From Candidatus Electrothrix sp. GW3-4 (lineage in GTDB: Bacteria > Desulfobacterota > Desulfobulbia > Desulfobulbales > Desulfobulbaceae), in the NCBI RefSeq assembly GCF_037902255.1, contig NZ_CP147990.1:3690001-3722000 (forward strand): a stretch of 32,000 nucleotides of DNA, written 5' to 3'. Shown piece by piece: positions 3,004 to 23,122 of the stretch. A model generated the notes under the pieces. That model did not search any database, was not told the DNA's origin, and was given only the letters and a program-made list of their open reading frames with translations. Position numbers and translations under genes: made by a program. Within the stretch, counting starts at the first letter, position 1. Each line of letters starts with the position of its first letter.

Positions 3004-5730
3004 ATGGAATTGCTCGCAGTCTGGGGAATAGGCAAGGCGGTTTTGCCCTTTTTTCGCCCCATCCTGGAAACCATCGCCAAGGACGTGGCCAAGGATGCCG
3101 CCAAGAGCTACGTGGGCAAGTGCTTTAAGAGCGTCTTTTCGGTCATCCACAAGGATGCCCTGAGCAAGGCCACCGGTCTGGCCCTGAAAGAGCTCCTCGT
3201 CCTCATCGAAGACGAGTTCATCCGGGCGGATATCGAAGAGGAGCGGCTGCCCACCTGGACCGAGGACCTGCGCCGTTTTGTCGAGCAGGACCGGGTCTGT
3301 CAGGCCATTGCCGATCTCTTTCTCCGGCCTGAGGCCATCCCGGAGCCGGGCAGCTTTGCCCTTGCCTGGCAGGAGCTTGAAGGTGCCCAACCCCTGCCGG
3401 ACGGATTCAACTGGAAGTACATCAGCAGGCGTTTCTCGGCCAAGGTCAAGGAGATTCGTCATTCCTCTCCTGAACTCCGGGAGACCTTCGAGTCCCTGGC
3501 CAAGGCCCAGGACTCCGCAGCCCTGCAGGAGCTGGCCGGTCTGCCGCCCGGTTTCAATCTGGATACCTACCGCGAGGCCCTGTTCGAGCGCTACGGCAAG
3601 CTGGACTTTGCCAGCCTGGATGTCACCGGGCCCTACTATGATAATGTCCGTCTCTGGAAGGTCTTCGTGCCCCAGTCGGTCCGGGAATGCCATGAGTACG
3701 ACCCGCAGCTGCTGGAGGTCCCCAAGGAAGAGCTGCAACGCCAGGCCGAGGCGGGCGAGCTGGACCCGGAACAGCTGGCCGAGTCCGAGCGCTTGCATGA
3801 GGAGCGCAGGCGGGCCTATGTCAACCAGCCGCCGCGCCCGGTGCTCGAAGTCGCCAACGATACCGCAAGCCAGCGCCTGCAACGCCTGGTCATCCTCGGT
3901 GATCCCGGTTCGGGCAAGTCCTGCCTCCTGCAATACCTAGCCCTGGCATGGGCCAAGATCGACGATCCCAACCAGCGCTACACCGCCCCCCTCCCCCTGC
4001 TCATCGAGCTGCGGGCCTATAACCGCTGGCCATGTCCCAACGGCAAGGGCTTTCTCAAGTACCTGCACGAGTCCTCCACCTGGCATCGGCTCAATCAACA
4101 GACCCTCCATCATCTGCTCGGTCAGCCGGGCCGCGTTGTCCTCCTGTTGGACGGGCTGGACGAGGTCTTTGACCCGGTGGAGCGCGAGCAGGTGGTCAAC
4201 GATATCCACCGTTTCAGCAACGAGTACAAGCAGGTTCGCATTGTGGTGACCTCGCGGGTGGTGGGCTATAGGTCCAAGCGCCTGCGTGATGCTGAGTTCC
4301 GCCATTTCATGCTCCAGGACCTGGATAAGGAACAGATCAGCAGCTTTCTGGAGAAATGGCATACGGTCACCTTTGACAAGCTGGAGGAAGGCGCGACCAA
4401 GCGGGAGCGGCTGGCCAAGGCCATCGAGCGATCCAAGTCCATCGGCCAGCTGGCAGGCAATCCCCTGCTTCTGACTATGATGGCCATCCTCAACCGCAAC
4501 CAGAAGCTGCCTGACGATCGGGTGGACCTGTACCAGCAATGCTCCCGCCTCCTCCTCCATCAATGGGATACCGAACGGGCCCTGGGGGATTTCCCCGGCC
4601 TGAGCGAGGAGATCGGCCTGCGGGAAAAGACCACCATCCTCCGCACCGTGGCCTATGCCATGCAGACGCACCAGGCCGAGAACACGCGGGCCAACTATAT
4701 TGATGGCCAGGCCCTGGAGAAGCTGATTGAGGAGTACCTCCATACCGAGTTACGTTTTGAGCAGGCACGGGCCGTGGCCCGGGCCTTGGTTGAGCAGTTA
4801 CGAAGGCGGAACTTTATCCTCTGCTACCTGGGTGGAGACAGCTACGCCTTTGTCCATCGGACCTTTCTGGAGTATTTCTGTGCGGCCGAGATCGTCCATC
4901 AGTTCAATGTGGCCAAGACGCTCAGCGAGCAGGATCTAATTGATTTGTTCGATAAGCACTGTGGGGACGATGACTGGCGCGAGGTGCTGCGCCTGATCTG
5001 TGGGCAGATTGATGAGAAGTTTGCCGGACGAATTATTGCCCATCTGACGGAACGGGTAGATATGGAAGCGTGGGATGGAGAAATGCCGTTGCCGGAGTTG
5101 GTGCTGGCGGTTTGGTGCTTGAGCGAAGTTAGAAATTTAAATAAAATTCAGGAGAAGATAGGAGGAGACCTGCTGTTAAAAGTTGTTGGCTGTTTTTTAA
5201 GAGGAACAAGAGGAAATCATCGTCTTGCTTGGCAACTGCTTGCAGCGGCTAAGGATATTGGCACTGTATGGCCAGGAAAATTCCGATTTGATTTTATATT
5301 GCAATACCCTGTAGAGTGGTGGGAATTTCAGGTCACATGGCCTCAATTTTTAGCGGCTGTTTTCAAGCAACGCCGGTGGATAGAACAACTTGCCGGTGTG
5401 GAAAATAATTTTATTCGATCAGGTTCTTTTTTTACTTTAAATCAATACTGGCCTGATGAGAAAGCTTATCAGCTTTTTAAAGAGTTTTCTCGTTTCGATG
5501 GAGCAGCAGCTTCATTTTATGGAGGCAAGCATTCCAAGTTTGGTAAATTTATATTTGAACGTGTTTTATTGTATCATGATCCTCGCAATCCCATCCCCGT
5601 CGAGCACATCCAACAAGCCGCAGAAGAAGCCGGTATTCCCCCGTATAAAATCGACGAAACCGTGCGCTCTCTTTCAGAGCACATGGGCTGGGACATCACC
5701 AAAGGCAGCGAGGCCGGGAAGCTGGCATAA
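3004..5730 (+). CDS. NACHT-domain STAND NTPase (bacterial NACHT, candidate anti-phage / conflict-system protein)
   Basis: 908-aa ORF. Walker A LVILGDPGSGKSCLL at about 3898-3921. Walker B VVLLLDGLDEV at about 4135-4167. GNPLLLTMM motif typical of the NACHT/winged-helix region. The ~290-aa helical N-terminal region and the C-terminal region are unassigned. Confidence 0.85.
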   Translation: MELLAVWGIGKAVLPFFRPILETIAKDVAKDAAKSYVGKCFKSVFSVIHKDALSKATGLALKELLVLIEDEFIRADIEEERLPTWTEDLRRFVEQDRVCQAIADLFLRPEAIPEPGSFALAWQELEGAQPLPDGFNWKYISRRFSAKVKEIRHSSPELRETFESLAKAQDSAALQELAGLPPGFNLDTYREALFERYGKLDFASLDVTGPYYDNVRLWKVFVPQSVRECHEYDPQLLEVPKEELQRQAEAGELDPEQLAESERLHEERRRAYVNQPPRPVLEVANDTASQRLQRLVILGDPGSGKSCLLQYLALAWAKIDDPNQRYTAPLPLLIELRAYNRWPCPNGKGFLKYLHESSTWHRLNQQTLHHLLGQPGRVVLLLDGLDEVFDPVEREQVVNDIHRFSNEYKQVRIVVTSRVVGYRSKRLRDAEFRHFMLQDLDKEQISSFLEKWHTVTFDKLEEGATKRERLAKAIERSKSIGQLAGNPLLLTMMAILNRNQKLPDDRVDLYQQCSRLLLHQWDTERALGDFPGLSEEIGLREKTTILRTVAYAMQTHQAENTRANYIDGQALEKLIEEYLHTELRFEQARAVARALVEQLRRRNFILCYLGGDSYAFVHRTFLEYFCAAEIVHQFNVAKTLSEQDLIDLFDKHCGDDDWREVLRLICGQIDEKFAGRIIAHLTERVDMEAWDGEMPLPELVLAVWCLSEVRNLNKIQEKIGGDLLLKVVGCFLRGTRGNHRLAWQLLAAAKDIGTVWPGKFRFDFILQYPVEWWEFQVTWPQFLAAVFKQRRWIEQLAGVENNFIRSGSFFTLNQYWPDEKAYQLFKEFSRFDGAAASFYGGKHSKFGKFIFERVLLYHDPRNPIPVEHIQQAAEEAGIPPYKIDETVRSLSEHMGWDITKGSEAGKLA
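5658..5730 (+). repeat. Direct repeat copy 1: the last 24 codons of the NACHT gene
   Basis: AACCGTGCGCTCTCTTTCAGAGCACATGGGCTGGGACATCACCAAAGGCAGCGAGGCCG... recurs at 6311-6385. Confidence 0.9.
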
Positions 5731-5818
5731 GGGCGAAAAATTTTCTCCCTTACTGTTTCTGTGCTATAATGAAGAATTAGCTGGAGTATGACCAAAAAGA
5801 AAACTGTGGAGCAACGTC

Positions 5819-6286
5819 ATGGAATGGGCTGAAGTCATAGGCAACCCCCTTTTGCAGAATCTTCCCTTCAAGATCGAGCTGAACCGCTTCGGCAAAATCC
5901 TCATGAGCCTGGCCTCCAATCAGCACGGACGCATCCAGGGCCGGATGGCTGCGAATCTTGTCAATAAGCTGCCCAACGGTGAGGTCATCACGGAATGCTC
6001 TATCCAAACCTCGGAGGGAGTCAAGGTGGCCGATGTGGTTTGGGCCTCGGATGAGTTCATCCAGACCTTTGCCTATGAAACCCCGTATCCCAAGGCCCCG
6101 GAAATCTGCATTGAGATCGTTTCCACGTCAAACTCCAAGGCGGAAATTACCGGCAAGGTGGAACTCTATCTGGCAAAGGGTGCGCAGGAAGTCTGGGTAG
6201 TCTATGAGGACGGCAGAATTACGACCTTCAGCCATATCGGGGAAATCAAAAAAAGCTCCTTGGTCCCTGATGCGCAGAAGCTCTAG
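5819..6286 (+). CDS. Uma2 family (DUF820) restriction-endonuclease-like protein
   Basis: 155 aa. The segment PEICIEIVSTSNS...KVELYLAKGAQEVWVV matches the PD-(D/E)xK-type core of Uma2/DUF820 proteins. TGGAG lies upstream of the ATG. Confidence 0.75.
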   Translation: MEWAEVIGNPLLQNLPFKIELNRFGKILMSLASNQHGRIQGRMAANLVNKLPNGEVITECSIQTSEGVKVADVVWASDEFIQTFAYETPYPKAPEICIEIVSTSNSKAEITGKVELYLAKGAQEVWVVYEDGRITTFSHIGEIKKSSLVPDAQKL

Positions 6287-7801: not shown

Positions 7802-8519
7802 GCAGATGCCTGAACAGGGAACCAACGCCGCACCGGATAAACTACGGGTCGTCACCATTGACGGCCCTTCCGGGGTGGGCAAATCCACGGTCAGCCGGAG
7901 GGTGGCGGCCGAACTGGGCTTCACCTACCTGGACACCGGGGCCATGTACCGGGCCGTGGGCTATGCCTGCGCCCAGGCTGGCATTGAGGTGGACGACCCT
8001 GCTCACCAGGAAGCACTGAACAAGCTGCTGGCCGAGTTGGATCTCCGCCTCCTCCCGCCGGAAAAGGAGGGCGATGAGGTACGGGTCTTTCTCGGGGATG
8101 AGGAGGTCAGCGCGGCCATCCGAATGCCGGAGATGAGCATGGCCGCCTCCCAGGTCTCTGCTGTTCCGACGGTGCGGGCCCGCCTCACCGTGATGCAGCA
8201 GGAAATGGGCAAGGCCGGGGGGCTGGTGGCTGATGGTCGGGATACCGGCACGGTGGTCTTTCCCCAGGCTGCCTGGAAATTCTACCTGGATGCCTCGCCG
8301 GAAGAGCGCTGCCGCCGCCGGGTGGCCCAGCTCCGGGAACGGGGCCAGGAGGTGGATGAGCAGGAGACCCTGGCCCAGATCATCGAACGCGATCGGAATG
8401 ATCAGGAGCGGACCATTGCTCCCCTGGTCATGGCCGCAGATGCCCTGCATATTGACTCTTCCCACATCAATGCGGATGAGGTCGTAGCGCGAATGCTGGA
8501 GGTTGTTTCTTCGGGGTAA
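7794..8519 (+). CDS. cmk: Cytidylate kinase
   Basis: [37 protein letters not shown]. The start overlaps the hisC stop by 8 nt (ATGTCTGA). Confidence 0.93.
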
Positions 8520-8589
8520 TTATACACCAACAAGGCATCGGGCATTGCAAAAGAGCGCATATAATCAATTCGTCCCCAGAGGAGAAGCC

Positions 8590-9336
8590 ATGGCCATCCC
8601 ACTTCCTAAGAATGAATCGGACCGGCTCAAGGCCCTGAAACGGTATAAGATTCTCGATACGCCGCCAGAGCAGGAATTTGACGATATCACCCTGCTCGCC
8701 TCCTTTATCTGCGAAACACCGATTTCTCTTATCACCCTACTTGATGAAACCCGCCAGTGGTTTAAGGCAAAGGTAGGGATCTCGGTCTCTGAAACCTCGC
8801 GGGAAGTGGCCTTTTGCAATCATGCCATCACCCAGCCGGAGATGCTCATCATCCAGGATGCACTCAATGACGAGCGCTTTGCCGCTAATCCTCTGGTGAC
8901 AGGAGCCCCGAACATCAGATTCTATGCAGGCTCGCAATTGGTCACCCCTGACGGCTACCAGCTGGGCACCCTCTGTGTGATCGACCGAAAGCCGCGTGAG
9001 CTCAGACTTGAGCAACTCCGTGCCCTTCGGGCATTAGCGCGTCAGGTTATCTCACAACTTGAGCGGCACCGCTCCTCCTGCAACCTACAACAGGCCAACA
9101 AGATCCAGGAAGAACTCATTGCTGAGCTGCAAGAGGCCCTCAGCCGTATTGAGACCCTGGAGGGCATGATTCCCATCTGCGCCCATTGTAAAAAGATCCG
9201 CGATGATCAGGGCTACTGGCATCAGGTTGAGGCCTACATCGGTCAGCTCTCATCGGCTGAGTTCGATTTCTCCCATGGGATTTGCCCTGACTGTATGCAG
9301 AACCTCTATCCGGAGTTTCATGACCCGGAAGATTAA
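8590..9336 (+). CDS. GAF-domain sensor protein with a coiled-coil and a C-terminal CxxC...HGICPxC zinc-ribbon-like module
   Basis: GAF N-terminal signature [27 protein letters not shown]...FCNHAI...RFYAG. C-terminus [53 protein letters not shown] lies 5-10 nt upstream of the ATG at 8590. Confidence 0.8.
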
Positions 9337-9550: not shown

Positions 9551-10537
9551 ATGTCTACTCCATTGAAGAAACTCATTGTCATCTTCCCTCTTCTCCTCCT
9601 CGCTGCCTGCGCAAACCTGCCGCCAGCCCATCCGCCAGAGGATAAACTCCTCCTCTACACCATTGCGGATGAAGAGACCCTGCTCAGTCGCTATGCCCCG
9701 GTCTTTGCCATTGAGGATGCCCAGGAGAGCTCTAACAGGATCGGCACGCCCAGCGCCAAGCTTGGGCCGGGGAAAGAGGAGATCATTTATGTGGATCCGA
9801 AGACTCCTACGGTCTATGCCAGGGAGGATCAGTTCGCGACCAGGAAAGGGCAGTACACCAACCTGATCTACCGCATCCATTTTGAGGAGGTACCGGATAG
9901 CTTTTTTCCCTATTACCTGGGCGCGGGTAAGAACATCGGCCTGCTCTTCATCATCACCCTGAATAATGAGAACGAGCCGGTGCTCTACACCTCGGTCCAT
10001 ACCTGCGGCTGTTATCTGGCCTTTGTCCCGACCTCGTACACACCGGCGGATGTCCTGCCCAAGGGCTGGCAGAAAGGACGGCAGACGGTGTACTCCGAAA
10101 GCCTGCCTGGCCTGCTTGATCACCGGAGTGACGCACCAGAGCAGGACAAGGTGGTATTCGTTATCCGGGGCGGCAACCACCGGGTCAAGGATATCTGGCT
10201 GGCAGACAAGGGCTTCCTGCCTGACTACAAGAAGATCACAGCGGACCTCCAGCCCTTTGGTGCCTTGCAAATGCTTCCGCTGGGGGAGCAGCGGGCCACC
10301 TCGTTTTATGAGACCTCCGGCCCGAGAAAAGGCTACGTAAAAGGGAGTCATAAGTCACGGGAACGGCTGTACATGAGCTGGTGGGCCTTTGACTGGCAGA
10401 TTGGTGAGGATAAGAAGCTGGGCAAGAATAAATATGATGGAGTGACCTTTTACACCAGCCTGAAGCCCTGGGCCAGAGAGGCCTCTGATTTGCGGGATTT
10501 TGTGACCTTTGCGAAGTATTGGGGGTGGAATTTCTAG
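9551..10537 (+). CDS. Hypothetical lipoprotein
   Basis: 328 aa. Signal peptide with lipobox LLLLAAC. No family recognised. Confidence 0.7.
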   Translation: MSTPLKKLIVIFPLLLLAACANLPPAHPPEDKLLLYTIADEETLLSRYAPVFAIEDAQESSNRIGTPSAKLGPGKEEIIYVDPKTPTVYAREDQFATRKGQYTNLIYRIHFEEVPDSFFPYYLGAGKNIGLLFIITLNNENEPVLYTSVHTCGCYLAFVPTSYTPADVLPKGWQKGRQTVYSESLPGLLDHRSDAPEQDKVVFVIRGGNHRVKDIWLADKGFLPDYKKITADLQPFGALQMLPLGEQRATSFYETSGPRKGYVKGSHKSRERLYMSWWAFDWQIGEDKKLGKNKYDGVTFYTSLKPWAREASDLRDFVTFAKYWGWNF

Positions 10538-10561
10538 GGAAAGATACCTGATAAGGGGAGT

Positions 10562-11155
10562 ATGATCATGTCGCTATTGAGCAATCTTTTTGGTTGGAAG
10601 AAACCCTTGCCGGAGGCAAAGCAGAGGGAACTGGCAGCCTCGCTTCTTCAAGAGGCACAAGCACTTGCAGCGAATAAGCCGAAAAAAGCGCTTTCCCTGC
10701 TTCGTCGCAAAAGTAAACCCGCTTATGATGTACTGCGCATCGGAGGGGCGATGCATGGCGAATTCCGCAGTCTGGTCGTGAGGATACGGTCAAGACGGGA
10801 GCAATGCCCATTCCTTCCTTCCACTGCGGTGGAGGTAATCTGTTGGGATACCTGGCAGGATCCCATGTTCCACGACATCGCTGATCGCACCCGCAAAACA
10901 GAGGCCGAGGTCTTGTATATCCCCCCATCGCCCAAGCGAAACCCTAGAGACGCAATGGCCGAGCTTGAGGCCTTGCAGATGCTGTACGATCCAGAGGTGG
11001 GCGTGATGACCATTGGTGAAAAAGGGGTGTTCCTGCGCTGTTCGCTGATTTTGGCAGCGGTAGGTAACCTCCCGGATGATGCTGAAGAAATCATTCAGGA
11101 TATGTTGGATCAGGCCAAGGTTCAGGGACTGAAGGTCGGGTGGATTACGGTGTGA
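10562..11155 (+). CDS. Hypothetical protein (the start may be the ATG at 10568)
   Basis: 197-aa ORF with core-like GC content. AGGGGAG lies just upstream. No recognisable domain. Its 3' end is duplicated at 12763-12858. Confidence 0.55.
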   Translation: MIMSLLSNLFGWKKPLPEAKQRELAASLLQEAQALAANKPKKALSLLRRKSKPAYDVLRIGGAMHGEFRSLVVRIRSRREQCPFLPSTAVEVICWDTWQDPMFHDIADRTRKTEAEVLYIPPSPKRNPRDAMAELEALQMLYDPEVGVMTIGEKGVFLRCSLILAAVGNLPDDAEEIIQDMLDQAKVQGLKVGWITV

Positions 11156-11312: not shown

Positions 11313-11321
11313 GTGAAAAAC

Positions 11322-12758
11322 ATGAAGAAAGTCTCAGCAGAACAAGTGATTAAACGTCTCAAGATTGAAAACCCTTGGTGGGAAACACGAAAAATACCAA
11401 CGGCCTATCTTGCGTTTAAGCCTCGATCTTACCTTGAGCTTTTCTACCCTTTAGTTCAGACCAAAAAAATTCGACGAGCAACGGTCTTGATGGGGCCGAG
11501 ACGAGTTGGCAAGACCGTAATACTCCACCATACTATACAGAACCTCATTGACAGTGGTTATGACCCCAACAAAATAGGATATTTCTCTGTAGATCACCCC
11601 ATTTACAATGGATTAGGCCTAGAGGAATTACTTGAACTTTTTTCTGCGGCGACTGAAGCTAACTATCACGAGGATGAGTGCTACATCTTTTTTGATGAAA
11701 TACAATATCTCAAGAATTGGGAAAATCATCTTAAACTTCTTGTAGACCGTCAGCCAAACTTAAAATGTACCGTGTCTGGGTCTGCTGCGGCAGCATTGAA
11801 ATTAAAAAGCTCAGAATCTGGAGCAGGAAGATTTACAGATTTTCTTCTGCCGCCATTAACATTTCACGAATATCTGGAGCTTTTAGATAAAAATAATCTG
11901 GTTATACCACCAAGCGAAGCGAATGGTTTTTTCAAACCACGCAATATAGAAAAATTAAACGAAAGTTTTATTCACTATCTTAACTATGGAGGATACCCGG
12001 AAGTTATTTTCTCCGACATAATCCAATCAGACCCAGGTCGTTTTATCAAAAGTGATATTATCGACAAAGTTCTTCTGAGGGATTTGCCGGGTCTGTATGG
12101 TATTCAAGATATACAGGAACTCAACTACCTTTTTACAACACTAGCTTTTAACTCATCAAACGAAGTGTCCTTGGAAGAACTATCCAAAGGATCAGGTGTA
12201 GCTAAAAATACGATAAAAAAATACATTGAGTACTTAGAAGCGGCTTTTCTTATTAGAACAGTTCATAGAATAGACAGAACAGCTAAGCGCTTTAAGCGTG
12301 CCAATTTTTTTAAGGTTTATTTGACTAATCCGTCTATTCGAAGTGCCTTATTTTCTCCTGTTACTCATTCGGATGAAGCTATAGGGGCTCTCTCGGAAAC
12401 AGCTATATATTCTCAATGGTTTCATTCCGACACCTTACTCCATTATGCTCGATGGAAAAACGGAGAGGTTGACATCGTTCACTTGAACAAACAATTAAAA
12501 GTCTCGTGGGCTATCGAGGTTAAATGGACGGATAGATTTTTCACCAGACCTCATGAGCTGAAGAGTCTTATTCAATTTTGCCACTCAAATAATGTTACAG
12601 GGGCTGCTGTAACGACTATGACAAAATCAGAAAAAGTAACCGTTGAGAATGTTAATTTTGATTTCATCCCCACAAGTTTATATTGTTATACAGTCGGCTA
12701 TAACATCGTAAAAGGTAAACAAAATATAAGAGAGGGGCTAACCAGCGGAGCAACCTGA
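11322..12758 (+). CDS. AAA+ ATPase of the COG1373 / DUF4143 family (an alternative GTG start is at 11313)
   Basis: Walker A LMGPRRVGKTV. Walker B YIFFDEIQYLKNWE. C-terminal GEVDIVHL...WAIEVKW resembles a PD-(D/E)xK core. GC content is low relative to the neighbours. Confidence 0.8.
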   Translation: MKKVSAEQVIKRLKIENPWWETRKIPTAYLAFKPRSYLELFYPLVQTKKIRRATVLMGPRRVGKTVILHHTIQNLIDSGYDPNKIGYFSVDHPIYNGLGLEELLELFSAATEANYHEDECYIFFDEIQYLKNWENHLKLLVDRQPNLKCTVSGSAAAALKLKSSESGAGRFTDFLLPPLTFHEYLELLDKNNLVIPPSEANGFFKPRNIEKLNESFIHYLNYGGYPEVIFSDIIQSDPGRFIKSDIIDKVLLRDLPGLYGIQDIQELNYLFTTLAFNSSNEVSLEELSKGSGVAKNTIKKYIEYLEAAFLIRTVHRIDRTAKRFKRANFFKVYLTNPSIRSALFSPVTHSDEAIGALSETAIYSQWFHSDTLLHYARWKNGEVDIVHLNKQLKVSWAIEVKWTDRFFTRPHELKSLIQFCHSNNVTGAAVTTMTKSEKVTVENVNFDFIPTSLYCYTVGYNIVKGKQNIREGLTSGAT

Positions 12759-12762
12759 CCGC

Positions 12763-12858
12763 AGGTTCAGGGGCTGAAGGTCGGGTGGGGTTACGATGTG
12801 AGCCTAAGGTAGCTTTTAGTAGAAATATTCTTTATTTGTCTTTTAGCACAGTTGTGGG
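12763..12858 (+). repeat. Orphan direct repeat copy 2 of the 197-aa ORF 3' end and its downstream region
   Basis: It reads QVQGLKVGWGYDVSLR*, against KVQGLKVGWITV* in the intact gene. It lies between the ATPase and NYN genes. Confidence 0.85.
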
Positions 12859-13025
12859 CGCATATCAGGTGGTTTCGGCTTGTTTTTCCTTGGGGTGGTG
12901 GTAATGTCTTGCTGTCGCGAGAAGATGATAATTTGATAACCGGGAAAATAACTCCAGCTATAGGATGATATCCTATCATTGTTTTCAGGTTATCCATACT
13001 GTTAGAAAAACAAATAGGAACACTC

Positions 13026-13832
13026 ATGGTATCCCCACGATTAGTTGCAAAAATAGAAACAGAAGAGCCGACTCTTAGTTTGGCTGTTTTAATTGATGCT
13101 GATAATGCTCAGGCCGCTGTGATCGAAGGTCTACTTGCAGAAATTGCTAGATTTGGCGAAGCCACCGTAAAACGCATCTACGGTGACTTCACAGCACCAA
13201 CAAGTGCATCATGGAAAAAAGTTCTACAAAAATATGCCATTAAACCAATCCAGCAATTTGCCTACACAACCGGAAAAAACGCAACCGACAGCACAATGAT
13301 TATTGATGCAATGGATTTACTTTACACCCGTAAATTTAATGGCTTCTGCCTCATTACAAGCGATAGTGATTTCACCGGCCTAGCTATGAGAATACGCGAA
13401 GAAGGTCTAACTGTTCTTGGTTTTGGTGAAAAGAAAACTCCAATGGCTTTCCGTAACGCCTGCCATAAATTTATATTTACAGAAGTGCTTCGACCCACTC
13501 AAGAAGATGAACAAAACGACTCCCCCCAGCTAAGTGAAAAGCATAAAAAATCCTCAGAACCTCAAGCCTCTTCTTCGCCACCTCCTTCAAACAACATATT
13601 TCCTGAAAAATTCATTCTCACAGCACTTGATCAATCAACAGATGATACTGGTTGGGCACAACTCGGAACATTTGGTAGCTACCTAACTAAATTGCAACCC
13701 GATTTTGACTCAAGACTTTATGGTTACAAAAAACTCTCTGATTTGGTTAAGGCCAAAAATAATCTCTTTCAAACTGAAGAAAGAGAAGCACCAAGTGGAA
13801 ATCAAAAAATTCTTTATATCAGGGCAAAATAA
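13026..13832 (+). CDS. NYN (LabA-like) domain protein with a C-terminal OST-HTH/LOTUS domain
   Basis: LAVLIDADNA...KRIYGDF...GKNATDSTMIIDAMDLLY...CLITSDSDFTGLAMRIREEG (NYN acidic residues). C-terminal GWAQLGTFGSYLTKLQPDFDSRLYGYKKLSDLV (OST-HTH). Low GC content. Confidence 0.8.
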   Translation: MVSPRLVAKIETEEPTLSLAVLIDADNAQAAVIEGLLAEIARFGEATVKRIYGDFTAPTSASWKKVLQKYAIKPIQQFAYTTGKNATDSTMIIDAMDLLYTRKFNGFCLITSDSDFTGLAMRIREEGLTVLGFGEKKTPMAFRNACHKFIFTEVLRPTQEDEQNDSPQLSEKHKKSSEPQASSSPPPSNNIFPEKFILTALDQSTDDTGWAQLGTFGSYLTKLQPDFDSRLYGYKKLSDLVKAKNNLFQTEEREAPSGNQKILYIRAK

Positions 13833-19244: not shown

Positions 19245-19556
19245 CTATTTTTCCTCGTATAATTCCCGGTACAGTTTTGCCGCACAATCAGGACAGATAC
19301 CGTGGCTGAATTCCGCCTCAGAATGTTCGCGTATATAGGACTCGATCTGACTCCAATAGCCCTTATCGTCTCGTATTTTTTTACAGGAGGCACATATTGG
19401 CAAAAAACCGCTTAATATCTTCACCTGAGACATAGCTTCCTGCAATTTTTGCGTTCGTTGCTCGACAAGCTCTTCCAACTCATCCTTATATTGACTGAGC
19501 TCCTTTTCAGCAGCCAGCCGCTTTTTCATTTCATCCAAGGAGTTCATCACAATATA
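19245..19556 (-). pseudogene. C-terminal fragment of the IS-interrupted Cache receptor (coiled-coil plus CxxC...HGICPxC module)
   Basis: ...[92 protein letters not shown]. The first ~21 codons of the tracked ORF (19245..19619) read out of the IS end. Confidence 0.8.
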
Positions 19557-21421
19557 AAGGGTGTTGAAAAGTACCCCTGCATAGAGCAATTTCAGTTGTC
19601 CGAGATGCTCAATAAGCATTTTTTTCGTTTGTTAGTGTCACTGCAATCTGATGTCGAGCACTTTCCAGGCGGAATTCAACCTTTTTCAAAAAGCCACTAT
19701 GGGCAAGGCTCTATTTTTTGGACAAGCCGACTGTCAGAAACAGCAAAAATGAACAAACGGGTATTTTTGTAGCTGTAATAATTTAGATTGTTGTTTTGGT
19801 CCTTCTGCTATGCTGCCATTTTGAAGAGTGGCAGTTGCGGTGACTTTTTAGCAGGTATTTTTTTGCGGGTTCCTATCATTTTCAACAATAACAAGGAAAT
19901 ACTGCTGAGCGTACATCGAGCTGTGATCGCGGACTGACCGCGAACCCGAACGGTTTCAAGGCCGGTTTGATGTTTTAACAGGTTGAAAGGTCGTTCAGAA
20001 TTTTTGCGAATATCGTGTGCCTCCTGTATCTGCTCGACATGGTAAGGTATTCGCTGGAAAAAGCCTCTGTCTAACGGTATGCATCGACATTGCGGACAGC
20101 TTCCTTTGAGAAGACATTCACCTGTATTTGCAGCACATTTATACTCGTGATGATTCCCTTCGACGCCTGCATACTCCATAGGAACAGAACATTCATCATG
20201 GCAGAAAACAGTGCCTTTGACAGCATCAACATTATCCGGTGTAGATACTGTAGAACAGGGTGGAGTTGTCACGTATACACCTGTTTTATTGTACAATGAT
20301 CCGTCATTGTCATGATAGGCGGTATCGGCGGTGATGAGTTTCATCTTAACCCCCATAGCCTGCGCCACATCGACCAAAAGCGAAAGAAAGTGACTATCAT
20401 GGTGATTTGCCGGTGCAAGCAAAGATATGATCGGAAAACTATGATCAGTTTCAGCGTCAATTGCAGTTAACGTATGCAGACGATAGCCGACTACGTACAC
20501 AGATTTGTCACGCTTGTTGCGTCGTTTTCCACAGTCGCTGTCGAGATCATTGTAAATGCGTATATTTTGACCATTGATATTCAATGAAGCCAGGGGGATT
20601 TTACATTCATTGGCCAGTTCGGTAGAGTCCACTCCGTGCAGGATATGGTCACCAAGCATCCCGGACTGCAAAAAATGATGCAAAATATAAACCGTAATAT
20701 TAATCTGTTGGACAAATGTGAGGGAATTACGGAATTTGCTAAGCTGAGTATGGTCGATCATTGTTTTTTCACGCAATGACAATCCGATAAAGGCGCGATT
20801 CTGTTTGCGGTCAAGGCCGAGGTATTCTTCATCACAGAATTTTCGGTAGCTGATTTCTGGATACTTGATCGTCTTGAGCAGTTCGGCACGGAACATGTTG
20901 TGAGGGAAAAAGTCCCGCATAGCAGGACTATAGCCGTCATAAGCTAACAGGCGATTGATAATTTCGTTGTCAAGCAGCTGGTCGATAAACTGGAGCTCTT
21001 CATCTTTGATATATTTGGCGAAACGCCTTTCGCCAAAAAGCTTTATGATACTGTTATTTTTTGATTCATTGACAATATCGGCCATCTGATCAAGGCTGAT
21101 AATCCCCTTTGTCGGAACCTGTTGCTCCACGCCGAGCAGCTGATCTGGGGTGGCTGAAATATCCTGCTTGAAATCATACTCGCCCGCGACCTGCGCGAGG
21201 ACTTTTCGAGAGATTTCCTTTTTGGTCTTACGGTTCAGCCGGTTCCAATTAGGATAGTTTTCCTTAAGCTCTTTTTGTACGAGACGTTTGATATTTTTAT
21301 TATGCATAATGCCTGAAATGGGTAACGAATTAACATTATTAACTTTTCGTCATTATACAGGGTTTTTTCGACTTAAGCAACTGTTTTTGTGTAATATTGA
21401 AGTGTTCTTTTCAACACCCTT
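19557..21421 (-). mobile_element. Insertion sequence, 1865 bp, with 18-bp terminal inverted repeats and a 5-bp target-site duplication
   Basis: Left end AAGGGTGTTGAAAAGTAC (19557-19574). Right end GTTCTTTTCAACACCCTT (21404-21421), which is the reverse complement AAGGGTGTTGAAAAGAAC; 17/18 match. ATATA flanks both ends (19552-19556 and 21422-21426). The element encloses a single transposase ORF. Confidence 0.85.
19808..21307 (-). CDS. DDE transposase (IS4/IS5/IS1182-type superfamily; exact IS family not assigned)
   Basis: 499 aa. Candidate catalytic regions: ILHGVDSTELA, KLITADTAYHDNDG, and a C-terminal RKNSERPFNLLKHQTGLETVRVRG block typical of DDE_Tnp_1-type enzymes. Confidence 0.8.
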   Translation of the reverse strand: MHNKNIKRLVQKELKENYPNWNRLNRKTKKEISRKVLAQVAGEYDFKQDISATPDQLLGVEQQVPTKGIISLDQMADIVNESKNNSIIKLFGERRFAKYIKDEELQFIDQLLDNEIINRLLAYDGYSPAMRDFFPHNMFRAELLKTIKYPEISYRKFCDEEYLGLDRKQNRAFIGLSLREKTMIDHTQLSKFRNSLTFVQQINITVYILHHFLQSGMLGDHILHGVDSTELANECKIPLASLNINGQNIRIYNDLDSDCGKRRNKRDKSVYVVGYRLHTLTAIDAETDHSFPIISLLAPANHHDSHFLSLLVDVAQAMGVKMKLITADTAYHDNDGSLYNKTGVYVTTPPCSTVSTPDNVDAVKGTVFCHDECSVPMEYAGVEGNHHEYKCAANTGECLLKGSCPQCRCIPLDRGFFQRIPYHVEQIQEAHDIRKNSERPFNLLKHQTGLETVRVRGQSAITARCTLSSISLLLLKMIGTRKKIPAKKSPQLPLFKMAA

Positions 21422-22131
21422 ATATAGAAAGACAGCAGGAGAGTAACCGCAATAATAATAAATGAAATACAGAGTAACCCCTTTGTCAGATGAGCTATCT
21501 CATCGTTGATTTCCTCAAAAAAAATACCCGTGCCAATAACCCAGCCCCAAGGTTTGAAGAGTTTCACATAAGAAAGCTTGGGAACAATGTGTACAGGCCC
21601 CCTTGTCCATTTCCAGTAATATTGAGCATATCCTCCGTCCTTACTCCTTGCCAGAGCAATGAATTCCTTAAACAGATATCGGCCTTCTGAATCGGTAAAA
21701 GTGGACATATCCTTACCCTCCAGTCGCCTTAAACGGGGATGCATGATCATGGTTGAGTGGGTATCATTAATCCAAAAATACCCTCTTCCTGCAAACCCAT
21801 AACGAATTTCCCGTATCTGCTCTATCGCCATCTTTTGCCCAAGCTCAAGGGAAAGCTCACCAGACGTTACCAGCTGATTATATTGCCGTAACATACTTAT
21901 AACGGTCTGAACCTCACCTGAAATCAACGCTTTTTTCTGGGCAAGAAGATTATACTTAACAACAGGCAGGGCAACGACAAAAAGGATGACAACAAAAAGA
22001 AGAATCGTCAGGACAGAAGGGAGGACAATGCGAATCATCTCCTTTTTATACAGCTGACTCGTCCCATCAATCATGATACGCTCGCGTACTCTGGCAGCCA
22101 CCTCTGCTATATTAGACACACTCTTCCTCAA
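21422..22131 (-). pseudogene. N-terminal fragment of the IS-interrupted receptor (TM1 - single Cache domain - TM2)
   Basis: TM1 IRIVLPSVLTILLFVVILFVVALPVV. Cache-like GYFWINDTHSTMIMHP...YYWKW...KPWGWVIGTGIF. TM2 LLCISFIIIAVTLLLSFY. The tracked ORF (to 21373) then runs into the IS end and stops. The true start codon is uncertain (TTG at 22131 or downstream). Confidence 0.8.
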
Positions 22132-22225: not shown

Positions 22226-23122
22226 TCAGCCCTTATTTGCTTTCAGAATACACTCCAGCTCGCATGCCGCTGCATAGGCGACAATTTCCTCTTGCAAAAA
22301 TTGCACATAAGGACAATCAATTACAGCAAGAAGAGAATTTCGAACCATATATTTCCTGCTCTGTTTCAGCGGCTCAAGCGCTTCAAGGATGTAACTAAAG
22401 ATCTGTGGACGGCGGCAGACCAGAGGGCGCTGACTGTATACGGTGCAACGTCCGTTCTGTTCAAGGGCGGGACAGGATGCATCCTTGGGCAGGATCATGC
22501 TCCAGCCGTTTCGCCAATGCACCAGCTCCGGGTTGCCGCATTGATCAGCACCTTGATAAAAAGGACGCCCCTCAATCTGTAAAACAGCATCGTCCGACGC
22601 CGTATCAAGGGCCGACGTGGACCGACTCTCGGATGTATCATGGCGGGGCAAAGAAAAGAGCTTGGTCTCAGCATCCTGCAAAGGGATCTCAAAGAACTCC
22701 TGGGCCATTGCTTTCTCCGGGCCGACACAGCAAAGCCGACAATGACAGGGCGCACAAAGGCAGGAGTTGATCTCCTCCAGCTCCGCCTCCAGAATACGTT
22801 GGTTGATCAAAACGGTGCAGGCCGAGACGGCATCCACTGGCTGGCCTGACGCATCCACCACCTCTGCGTTCAGCTCCTCCGGTTGATTATCTGTGCCCAC
22901 TGTTTCCAGTAACTGCAGCTGATCAAGATACCGGCGTAATAACTTATCCGGCTCCGGGTAGACCGTGTAAGGTGTCTCAATCGGCCCTGTCATCTCCGCA
23001 ATGATGTCTTCAACCTTTGCTCCAGGGCCGCTGAGCTGATACATAAACTGCACCATGGAGACCAACGGCAGCACCGGCTGTTTCAGCAGGGCCATGCCAT
23101 CCTGGAGATCTTCTTTTTTCAC
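22226..23122 (-). CDS. YkgJ-like cysteine-cluster (UPF0153-type) protein with an extended N-terminal region
   Basis: CLCAPCHCRLCC cluster, and a C-terminal CPALEQNGRCTVYSQRPLVCRRPQIF resembling the YkgJ CxxCxxCC...CP.L....C.IY..RP..CR motif. Confidence 0.5.
   Translation of the reverse strand: MKKEDLQDGMALLKQPVLPLVSMVQFMYQLSGPGAKVEDIIAEMTGPIETPYTVYPEPDKLLRRYLDQLQLLETVGTDNQPEELNAEVVDASGQPVDAVSACTVLINQRILEAELEEINSCLCAPCHCRLCCVGPEKAMAQEFFEIPLQDAETKLFSLPRHDTSESRSTSALDTASDDAVLQIEGRPFYQGADQCGNPELVHWRNGWSMILPKDASCPALEQNGRCTVYSQRPLVCRRPQIFSYILEALEPLKQSRKYMVRNSLLAVIDCPYVQFLQEEIVAYAAACELECILKANKG

Follow-up and report, generated by a model that had tools for sequence, protein, structure and literature searches.

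The 32,000-nucleotide stretch of Candidatus Electrothrix sp. GW3-4 DNA analysed here (contig NZ_CP147990.1, positions 3,690,001 to 3,722,000; hereafter the window) encodes two sensors, a GAF-domain protein and a Cache-domain receptor, which end in copies of the same small module: a predicted amphipathic helix followed by a core of about 50 residues with four invariant cysteines (Cys4). The module occupies the position of an output domain, being C-terminal, joined through a helical linker to diverse input or receiver domains and accompanied by no other output domain. The arrangement of sensor, helix and output is a known one; the output domain itself is undescribed in the libraries that we searched and is without a detectable fold relative. 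We tentatively favor, with a probability of roughly 0.4, a reading in which the module is a metal-clasped dimeric transmitter that would relay signals to a common partner whose gene lies elsewhere in the genome; the metal, the dimer and the partner are what we infer.

A six-frame scan of the window with the pattern C-x2-C-[KR][KR]-x-[RK], extended by the remainder of the motif, recovered only two copies, whose C-x2-C-K-K-I-R signatures lie at positions 9178-9201 on the plus strand and 19371-19394 on the minus strand. A BLASTP comparison of their C-termini yielded 57% identity over 72 residues with an e-value of 2e-31, which indicates that the two copies are homologous and not similar by chance. 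The peptides that an initial annotation of this DNA had quoted for both copies are present in the six-frame scan as given; in the coordinates attached to them, each start misses the codon frame by one base and each end takes in the stop codon. The same annotation treated the Cache receptor as one gene. In the window that gene is split by an insertion sequence (IS) element, and the GAF protein is the only intact example of a module-bearing protein there.

The gene for the GAF protein occupies positions 8590-9336 of the plus strand, stop codon included. The enclosing open reading frame (ORF) runs from 8503 to 9336, and the likely start is the ATG at 8590, giving a protein of 248 residues, with which the gene calls in independent assemblies agree. 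Its GAF sensor domain (Pfam PF01590, E 1.4e-11) spans residues 26-154 (8665-9051), and scans against Pfam and NCBIfam detected no further domain in the protein. The conserved helix, located by the hydrophobic periodicity of the family and by the AlphaFold2 helix, covers residues 176-190 (9115-9159), in fixed register with the putative metal-binding Cys4 (+His) core at residues 191-241 (9160-9312), which was delineated by the pattern scan, the family alignment and the spacing analysis. The presumed ligands in this copy, whose core is strongly acidic, are Cys197, Cys200, Cys232 and Cys235, and His229 is conserved. The module is carried by 118 of the 120 best full-length homologues of the protein; such homologues, of about 240 residues and 54-57% identical over 98% of the length, are found in Anaerolineae, in Pontiella and in cultured cyanobacteria, including Halomicronema and Nodosilinea.

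Multiple alignments of 47 and then 275 sequences gave the consensus L-x-G-[LI]-[LI]-P-I-C-[AS]-x-C-K-K-I-R-D-D-x-G-Y-W-x-Q-[IV]-E-x-Y-I-x-x-H-S-E-A-x-F-S-H-G-I-C-P-[DE]-C-x-x-K-L-Y-P, in which about 30 of the 50 positions reach 80% identity or more across phyla. The C-x2-C motif is separated from the H-x2-C-x2-C motif by 26 residues, with no insertions or deletions, in all 276 members selected by regular expression. The first knuckle has the form C-x2-C-K, with lysine at 96%, and the second the form C-P-x-C followed by variable residues. Besides the invariant Cys4 set, approximately 19 polar residues are conserved, and the polar character of so many conserved residues should exceed what the fold alone would need. 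On average the core has a net charge of -1.5 ± 1.7. Upstream of the core, hydrophobic residues recur at positions -21/-20, -17, -13, -10 and -7 relative to the first cysteine, without insertions or deletions in 218 family members, and this fixed heptad-like register indicates that the amphipathic helix is part of the unit. The unit that the alignments define joins an amphipathic helix, fixed in register, to a Cys4 core of about 50 residues. The column-wise periodicity thus bears out the initial description of a recurrent C-terminal unit behind a heptad-patterned helix. That helix had also been called signalling-helix-like, which is apt with respect to the heptad-like conservation over some 15-26 residues and less so with respect to length, since the published S-helix is longer, linking signalling domains through five heptads, or about 40 residues (Anantharaman, Balaji and Aravind 2006, PMC1592074). 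In tandem-duplicated proteins, the degenerate second copy retains all four cysteines but often not the histidine, which suggests that the cysteines may be structural and the histidine functional.

The GAF copy in the window departs from the common spacing, with 28 residues between the CxxC and the histidine as against the 26 seen in the members selected by regular expression. The two additional residues form a DF insertion (D226-F227, 9262-9267) just before the conserved S-H-G. A spacing of 28 is found in 9 of the GAF-protein homologues listed, the window's own protein included, and the DF insertion is kept in all five Electrothrix GAF-module orthologues inspected. To judge by these orthologues it is a tolerated, Electrothrix-specific lineage variant, and its site would mark where the otherwise indel-free module tolerates a change of length.

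Searches with both proteins and with the isolated modules, at e-values up to 10, brought up no model of Pfam-A (2025 copy) or NCBIfam 20 that reached threshold on the module, the only matches being sub-threshold noise such as DUF3039, zf-C4pol, DZR_2, Fin and DUF1289. Single-sequence and profile searches of the PDB likewise gave nothing significant. No description of the module was recovered from the full-text literature with motif strings and concept terms, a search of incomplete coverage that leaves room for a description elsewhere; the available portions of PMC3333781, PMC10468136, PMC5847659 and PMC1592074 do not describe it either. The initial annotation had been unable to name a characterized family, and Pfam, NCBIfam, the PDB, Foldseek and the literature all remained without a significant match, so that none of the databases searched assigns the module to a family with a demonstrated function. 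Public records label the module proteins as "GAF/cache domain-containing protein", "PAS domain S-box protein", "signal transduction histidine kinase" or "diguanylate cyclase". Several proteins bearing the last two labels (P0271, P0277, P0497 and others) have no kinase or GGDEF domain, which looks like systematic misannotation of module proteins.

When a hidden Markov model (HMM) of the module alignment was searched against 1.84 billion representatives of clusters formed at 50% identity, 24,794 clusters matched at E<=1e-3, 20,564 at E<=1e-10 and 6,567 at E<=1e-30. A pattern scan of one genome per species gave at least 594 confirmed matches, of which the 80 best loci underlie our list of lineages and our analysis of neighboring genes. 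Roughly 19 phylum-level lineages, Cyanobacteria included, are represented among the matches listed. The 80 best loci derive from Thermodesulfobacteriota, Acidobacteriota, Spirochaetota, Nitrospirota, Chloroflexota, Verrucomicrobiota, Bacteroidota, Latescibacterota, Calditrichota, Neomarinimicrobiota, Cloacimonadota, Fibrobacterota, Sumerlaeota, Hydrogenedentes, Myxococcota and others. An earlier characterization of the module as deltaproteobacterial is thus far too narrow, given the presence of Cyanobacteria, Chloroflexota, Spirochaetota, Acidobacteriota and Verrucomicrobiota among these lineages. Across phyla, whole GAF-module and Cache-module proteins are kept at 50-57% identity. Only 2 loci with the module were found among 2.9 million viral contigs and a single plasmid record had a match, a near-absence that marks the family as cellular and chromosomal.

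In the 149 representatives that we scanned for their domain architectures, the module nearly always closes the protein, the last cysteine being followed by a median of 16 residues. PAS domains are present in the majority of these proteins, MASE6 in 17, REC in 16 and GAF in about 9, and further partners include HAMP, dCache_1, PocR, Reg_prop/Y_Y_Y and HisKA_7TM, all of them input or receiver domains. None of the 149 has a kinase, cyclase, phosphodiesterase, helix-turn-helix (HTH) or other known output domain, and the initial observation that both window proteins are without one holds for the pair and for every representative scanned. In 8 representatives the full regular expression detects two modules, and more would be added were degenerate copies lacking the histidine counted. 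The two-module proteins that we inspected look like a complete sensor-module unit repeated head to tail; in P0121, P0123, P0125-P0130 and P0223 the doubled units are REC-module or transmembrane (TM)-domain-module pairs. The second module of such proteins is often His-less with its Cys4 set retained, as would befit an inactive partner. Apparent stand-alone modules of 69-73 residues (L083, 5001-5210; L084, 5001-5216; L085, 5001-5222) were rejected as free-standing forms, since each either overlaps a same-strand GAF, PAS or 7TM-PAS gene or comes right after one, and they are probably frameshifted or genuinely split fusions.

Genomes carry several paralogues of the module, two of them in the window, and a Desulfurivibrio genome has tandem module genes coding for proteins of 219 and 211 residues (L023, 5590-7425), a local paralogue expansion. 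Clustering of the genes around the 80 best loci uncovered no conserved neighbor, the largest non-signaling cluster being generic ABC ATPases at 9 of the 80. At four loci of Cache-module orthologues, common neighbors were found only within Electrothrix and the surroundings were unrelated outside that genus. Beside the GAF-module gene in the window there is no linked candidate partner. A profile search and a neighborhood check of this kind had been proposed with the initial annotation, and their outcome is a very large family with no known output protein as a conserved neighbor.

The first AlphaFold2 model, of helix plus core from 47 sequences, was mediocre, with a predicted local distance difference test (pLDDT) score of 75, and placed a helix upstream of the core. 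A second model, of the canonical Cache copy from a 90-sequence alignment, was confident (pLDDT 89.7, predicted TM score 0.63), and its DSSP assignment comprises a strand at residues 4-10, helices at 11-17 and 22-33, a second strand at 35-41 and a final helix at 44-50. The predicted topology is hence β-CxxC-α-α-β-CxxC-α, with each CxxC placed across a strand-to-helix transition. The two strands are taken as parallel because the four cysteines could otherwise not meet, so that the core, going by the DSSP string, is probably a metal-clasped β-α-α-β-α unit. The initial annotation had called it zinc-ribbon-like, a term at odds with a model in which both CxxC motifs lead into helices and the strands number only two. 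Foldseek searches of the PDB retrieved no significant match with either model (best E 1.6 with the first and 1.3 with the second, TM scores below 0.5), and a search of BFVD with one model gave nothing significant either (best E 0.45, TM score below 0.5).

The occurrence of the same module in the output place behind many kinds of input domain makes it most likely that it acts as a transmitter. In the reading that we favor, two strand-CxxC-helix units would clasp one metal ion, most likely Zn(II), by means of the four invariant cysteines, and the module would stand in for the kinase, cyclase or DNA-binding domain otherwise expected behind PAS, GAF, REC, Cache/TM, HAMP, MASE6 and further inputs of one-component sensors, in tens of thousands of proteins. 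A dimeric sensor domain would shift the linker helices, and this shift would alter the juxtaposition of the two modules in the dimer, thereby exposing or hiding an almost invariant polar surface (K-K-x-R-D-D-x-G-Y-W, E, H-S and S-H-G). The exposed surface could then contact a common partner, encoded at some other place in the genome, such that many sensors would converge on one hub in the manner of chemoreceptor tips on CheA/CheW. The absence of a conserved neighbor together with several paralogues per genome is the pattern seen with outputs that have a common target. GGDEF and cyclase domains act on nucleotides and the tips of methyl-accepting chemotaxis proteins (MCPs) act on CheA/CheW, all of which are common targets available cell-wide. 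By this analogy, the combination of features in the module would be typical of outputs with cell-wide targets and not of local DNA-binding modules or dedicated partner-switching modules. The likeness to MCP tips and GGDEF domains is one of logic only, namely an extremely conserved output, many paralogous sensors per genome and no conserved neighbors; their folds and sizes are unrelated to those of the module and their targets, CheA/CheW and GTP, are known. The initial annotation had held that the module must be the effector. The position and the partner domains are indeed those of an output or transmitter domain, but the "must" goes further than an argument from architecture alone can carry.

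Several considerations weigh against a shared-partner transmitter. The two modules of the window, at 57% identity, are no more alike than each is to modules of other phyla (up to 74%), so that there is no sign of within-genome co-evolution with one partner. The hub is deduced purely from the missing linkage, the sample is skewed towards canonical members both by the ranking on profile score and by the selection with regular expressions, and a domain of 50 residues could be a mere structural or dimerization cap. The last of these alternatives, a metal-stabilized dimerization cap like the Zn(Cys)4 domain of the Fur family, with the output coming from the sensor domain itself or with such proteins serving as ligand sinks, we regard as unlikely. 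The C-terminal domain of Fur, Zur and PerR, like the module, has CxxC…CxxC in an α/β domain of similar size and a local [LI]-C-x2-C-[GK]-K-[IV] resemblance, and hhalign produced a collinear alignment of the whole core to E. coli Zur over 42 columns (E 0.024 in a single comparison, at a probability of only 2%). Foldseek ranked PerR and Fur highest for the weaker first model, and the free edges of the predicted two-stranded sheet could pair across a dimer. Yet the hhalign probabilities are 4% for E. coli Fur and 2% for Zur, the Foldseek e-values of 1.3-1.6 and TM scores below 0.5 are not significant, and the Fur family is absent from the first 50 hits listed for the second model; these comparisons do not support membership in a Fur-like family, and we take the resemblance to be topological only. 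In Fur proteins, moreover, the domain follows a winged-helix DNA-binding domain, whereas the module follows sensor domains. A cap would need neither the conserved polar surface residues, about 19 in number, nor an invariant histidine that degenerate copies lose, and response regulators and PAS proteins dimerize without one. Separately, in a Kapaibacterium genome a module gene is directly followed by one for a Fur-family regulator (L078, 6671-7084), a single case that is probably coincidence.

A thiol or metal redox switch, serving as a second input or an on/off lock, in which oxidation or loss of Zn/Fe would unfold the module and alter the oligomeric state of the sensor with no specific docking partner, also appears improbable. 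It would draw on the four invariant cysteines, whose two CxxC motifs at predicted strand-to-helix junctions recall the local geometry of redox-active CxxC sites, on thioredoxins among the weak and non-significant Foldseek matches, and on PerR, which has a Zn(Cys)4 redox switch and was the non-significant top match (E 1.6) of the first, lower-confidence model; many hosts, cable bacteria for example, are anaerobes or gradient organisms. But the family is present in oxygenic cyanobacteria too, and no structural match is significant. Such a switch leaves the invariant polar residues other than cysteine (K, K, R, D, D, E and H) unexplained, and names no downstream output for the REC-module response regulators.

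Small Cys4 fingers often bind nucleic acids, and a DNA- or RNA-binding finger would play the part that ANTAR or HTH domains have in other one-component systems. This we consider very unlikely, the conservation of C-K-K-I-R and of K-K after the last cysteine notwithstanding. The net negative charge, strongly so in the GAF copy of the window, led us to drop DNA binding as the leading idea; the paralogues hardly vary in sequence, so that specificity for different targets is hard to accommodate, and the genomic context is not conserved, unlike that of the usual local transcription factors. In architecture the module parallels ANTAR (PF03861), likewise a small C-terminal output of about 50-60 residues that a coiled coil joins to REC, PAS or GAF with no other output. 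ANTAR, however, is an all-helical RNA-binding domain without cysteines, in contrast to the acidic to neutral α/β Cys4 module, and the Pfam scans gave no sequence match between them. The nearest concept that the literature search brought up is HalOD2, an uncharacterized archaeal, halobacterial REC-associated C-terminal domain with two conserved CXXC motifs, predicted zinc binding and a proposed role in DNA or RNA binding, described from only a few halobacteria (Galperin et al. 2018, PMC5847659). By that description, its motifs lie 20-25 residues apart, as against 29 in the module, which is bacterial, very large as a family and also fused to PAS, GAF and Cache. The idea of a miniature enzyme or a small-molecule site, for instance for a nucleotide second messenger, at the dimer interface and built from the K-K-x-R-D-D, E and H residues is just as hard to credit. 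Its conservation would be like that of GGDEF and cyclase domains, with invariant charged residues, many paralogues per genome and no conserved neighbors, and the dispensability of the histidine in degenerate second copies recalls the inactive partners of pseudo-heterodimeric enzymes. Against this, an enzyme with about 50 residues per chain would be very small, Pfam, PDB profile and Foldseek searches detected no likeness in sequence or fold to known catalytic or nucleotide-binding motifs, and the idea is wholly speculative.

Other cysteine-based modules were compared and set aside. The best PDB hit, to the Rad50 zinc hook, covers just the helix and G-x-x-P-x-C and is not significant (E 0.14). 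The hook resembles the module in its coiled coil ending in G-x-x-P-x-C and in CxxC motifs that may share a metal between chains, but it has one CxxC per chain at an antiparallel apex, whereas the module has two per chain after a presumably parallel helix. With classical zinc ribbons and treble clefs the module shares two CxxC motifs, four cysteines and small size; a zinc ribbon needs two β-hairpin knuckles and a three-stranded antiparallel sheet, in place of which the model has two strands and helices, and the relevant profiles stay below their cutoffs (DZR_2 at 14-16 bits against 27, Zn_ribbon_HMPTM at 12.7 against 27 and zf-C4pol at 14-15 against 28.9). The ZAS anti-sigma motif, H-x3-C-x2-C, is helical and differs from the H-x2-C-x2-C of the module (S-H-G-I-C-P-x-C), which follows a β-strand, and there was no zf-HC2 hit. 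The pattern C-x2-C-G … C-P-x-C-G expected of a rubredoxin-like Fe(Cys)4 site is absent, and no rubredoxin family appears among the Pfam hits at E<=10.

The second copy of the module in the window belongs to the disrupted Cache receptor on the minus strand, and is contained in a 124-residue ORF at 19245-19619. Native receptor sequence is confined to 19245-19551 of this ORF, the first 21 codons (19557-19619) coming from the end of the IS element and the next codons crossing a 5-bp repeat. The conserved amphipathic helix, in the same register as in the family, lies at 19413-19457, and the canonical Cys4 (+His) core, with the 26-residue spacing, at 19266-19412. The N-terminal fragment of the receptor, comprising a TM helix, an sCache_2 domain (PF17200, E 2.2e-38) and a second TM helix, was mapped to 21422-22131 (minus strand) by alignment to the Ca. 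Electrothrix laxa orthologue, its sCache_2 domain falling in a separate ORF of 252 residues at 21373-22131 on the same strand. Between the two fragments, just after the second TM helix, is a 1865-bp IS element (19557-21421, minus strand). It encodes a DDE transposase of 499 residues (19808-21307) that matches DDE_Tnp_1 and DUF772, ends in imperfect inverted repeats of 27 nucleotides (19557-19583 and 21395-21421) whose first 15 nucleotides are identical, and is flanked by the 5-bp direct repeat TATAT (19552-19556 and 21422-21426), the target duplication. Deletion of 19552-21421 restores an in-frame receptor of 338 residues, 83-86% identical over 97-98% of the length to intact Candidatus Electrothrix proteins of 334 residues; the 334-residue Ca. 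E. laxa orthologue (P0271), at 83%, aligns with it through the junction without a gap. The Ca. E. laxa locus has no IS element and is syntenic with the window, with PgpA, LarC, fmt, def, a CxxCxxCC protein and an MscS-type channel in common, and proteins of the window are 78-86% identical to Electrothrix proteins, which marks the source of the window as a cable bacterium. On this sequence evidence, the Cache-module receptor of this genome is a recent IS casualty. Immediately upstream of its gene is that of the CxxCxxCC protein (298 residues, PF03692, putatively Zn/Fe-chelating; 22226-23122, minus strand), which has the same place in Ca. E. laxa but not at more distant orthologue loci.

As for the surroundings of the GAF-module gene, it lies downstream of hisC and cmk and upstream of two ORFs of 328 and 197 residues (9551-11155, plus strand) without a Pfam match, which directly follow it and whose order recurs in the gene calls of an independent assembly (L086). 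A conflict- or defence-type gene cluster occupies 3004-6286 and 11313-13832 of the window, with a NACHT NTPase bearing an NNH2 N-terminal domain, a Uma2-family endonuclease, an AAA_14/DUF4143 ATPase and a NYN-LOTUS (OST-HTH) protein.

Sensors recognizable by their inputs alone are usually filed as "PAS/GAF/Cache domain-containing protein", and a large share of such orphan sensors has one extremely conserved C-terminal module in common. With at least 20,000 clusters at 50% identity, from sulfate reducers and cable bacteria to cyanobacteria, this module is without an entry in Pfam, NCBIfam or the PDB, and defining it as a domain would bring an immediate gain in annotation, to which the benefit would be limited were it a structural cap only. 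Identification of its target would supply the output for thousands of orphan sensors and response regulators, and could reveal a hub or a second-messenger-like system. That the Cys4 domain is part of a previously unrecognized pathway, as a docking site for a hub or as a minimal dimeric enzyme or small-molecule receptor serving thousands of one-component sensors and response regulators in roughly 19 phylum-level lineages, is quite unlikely in our estimate; if true, it would mean a new output chemistry or a hub on the scale of GGDEF and MCP signaling.

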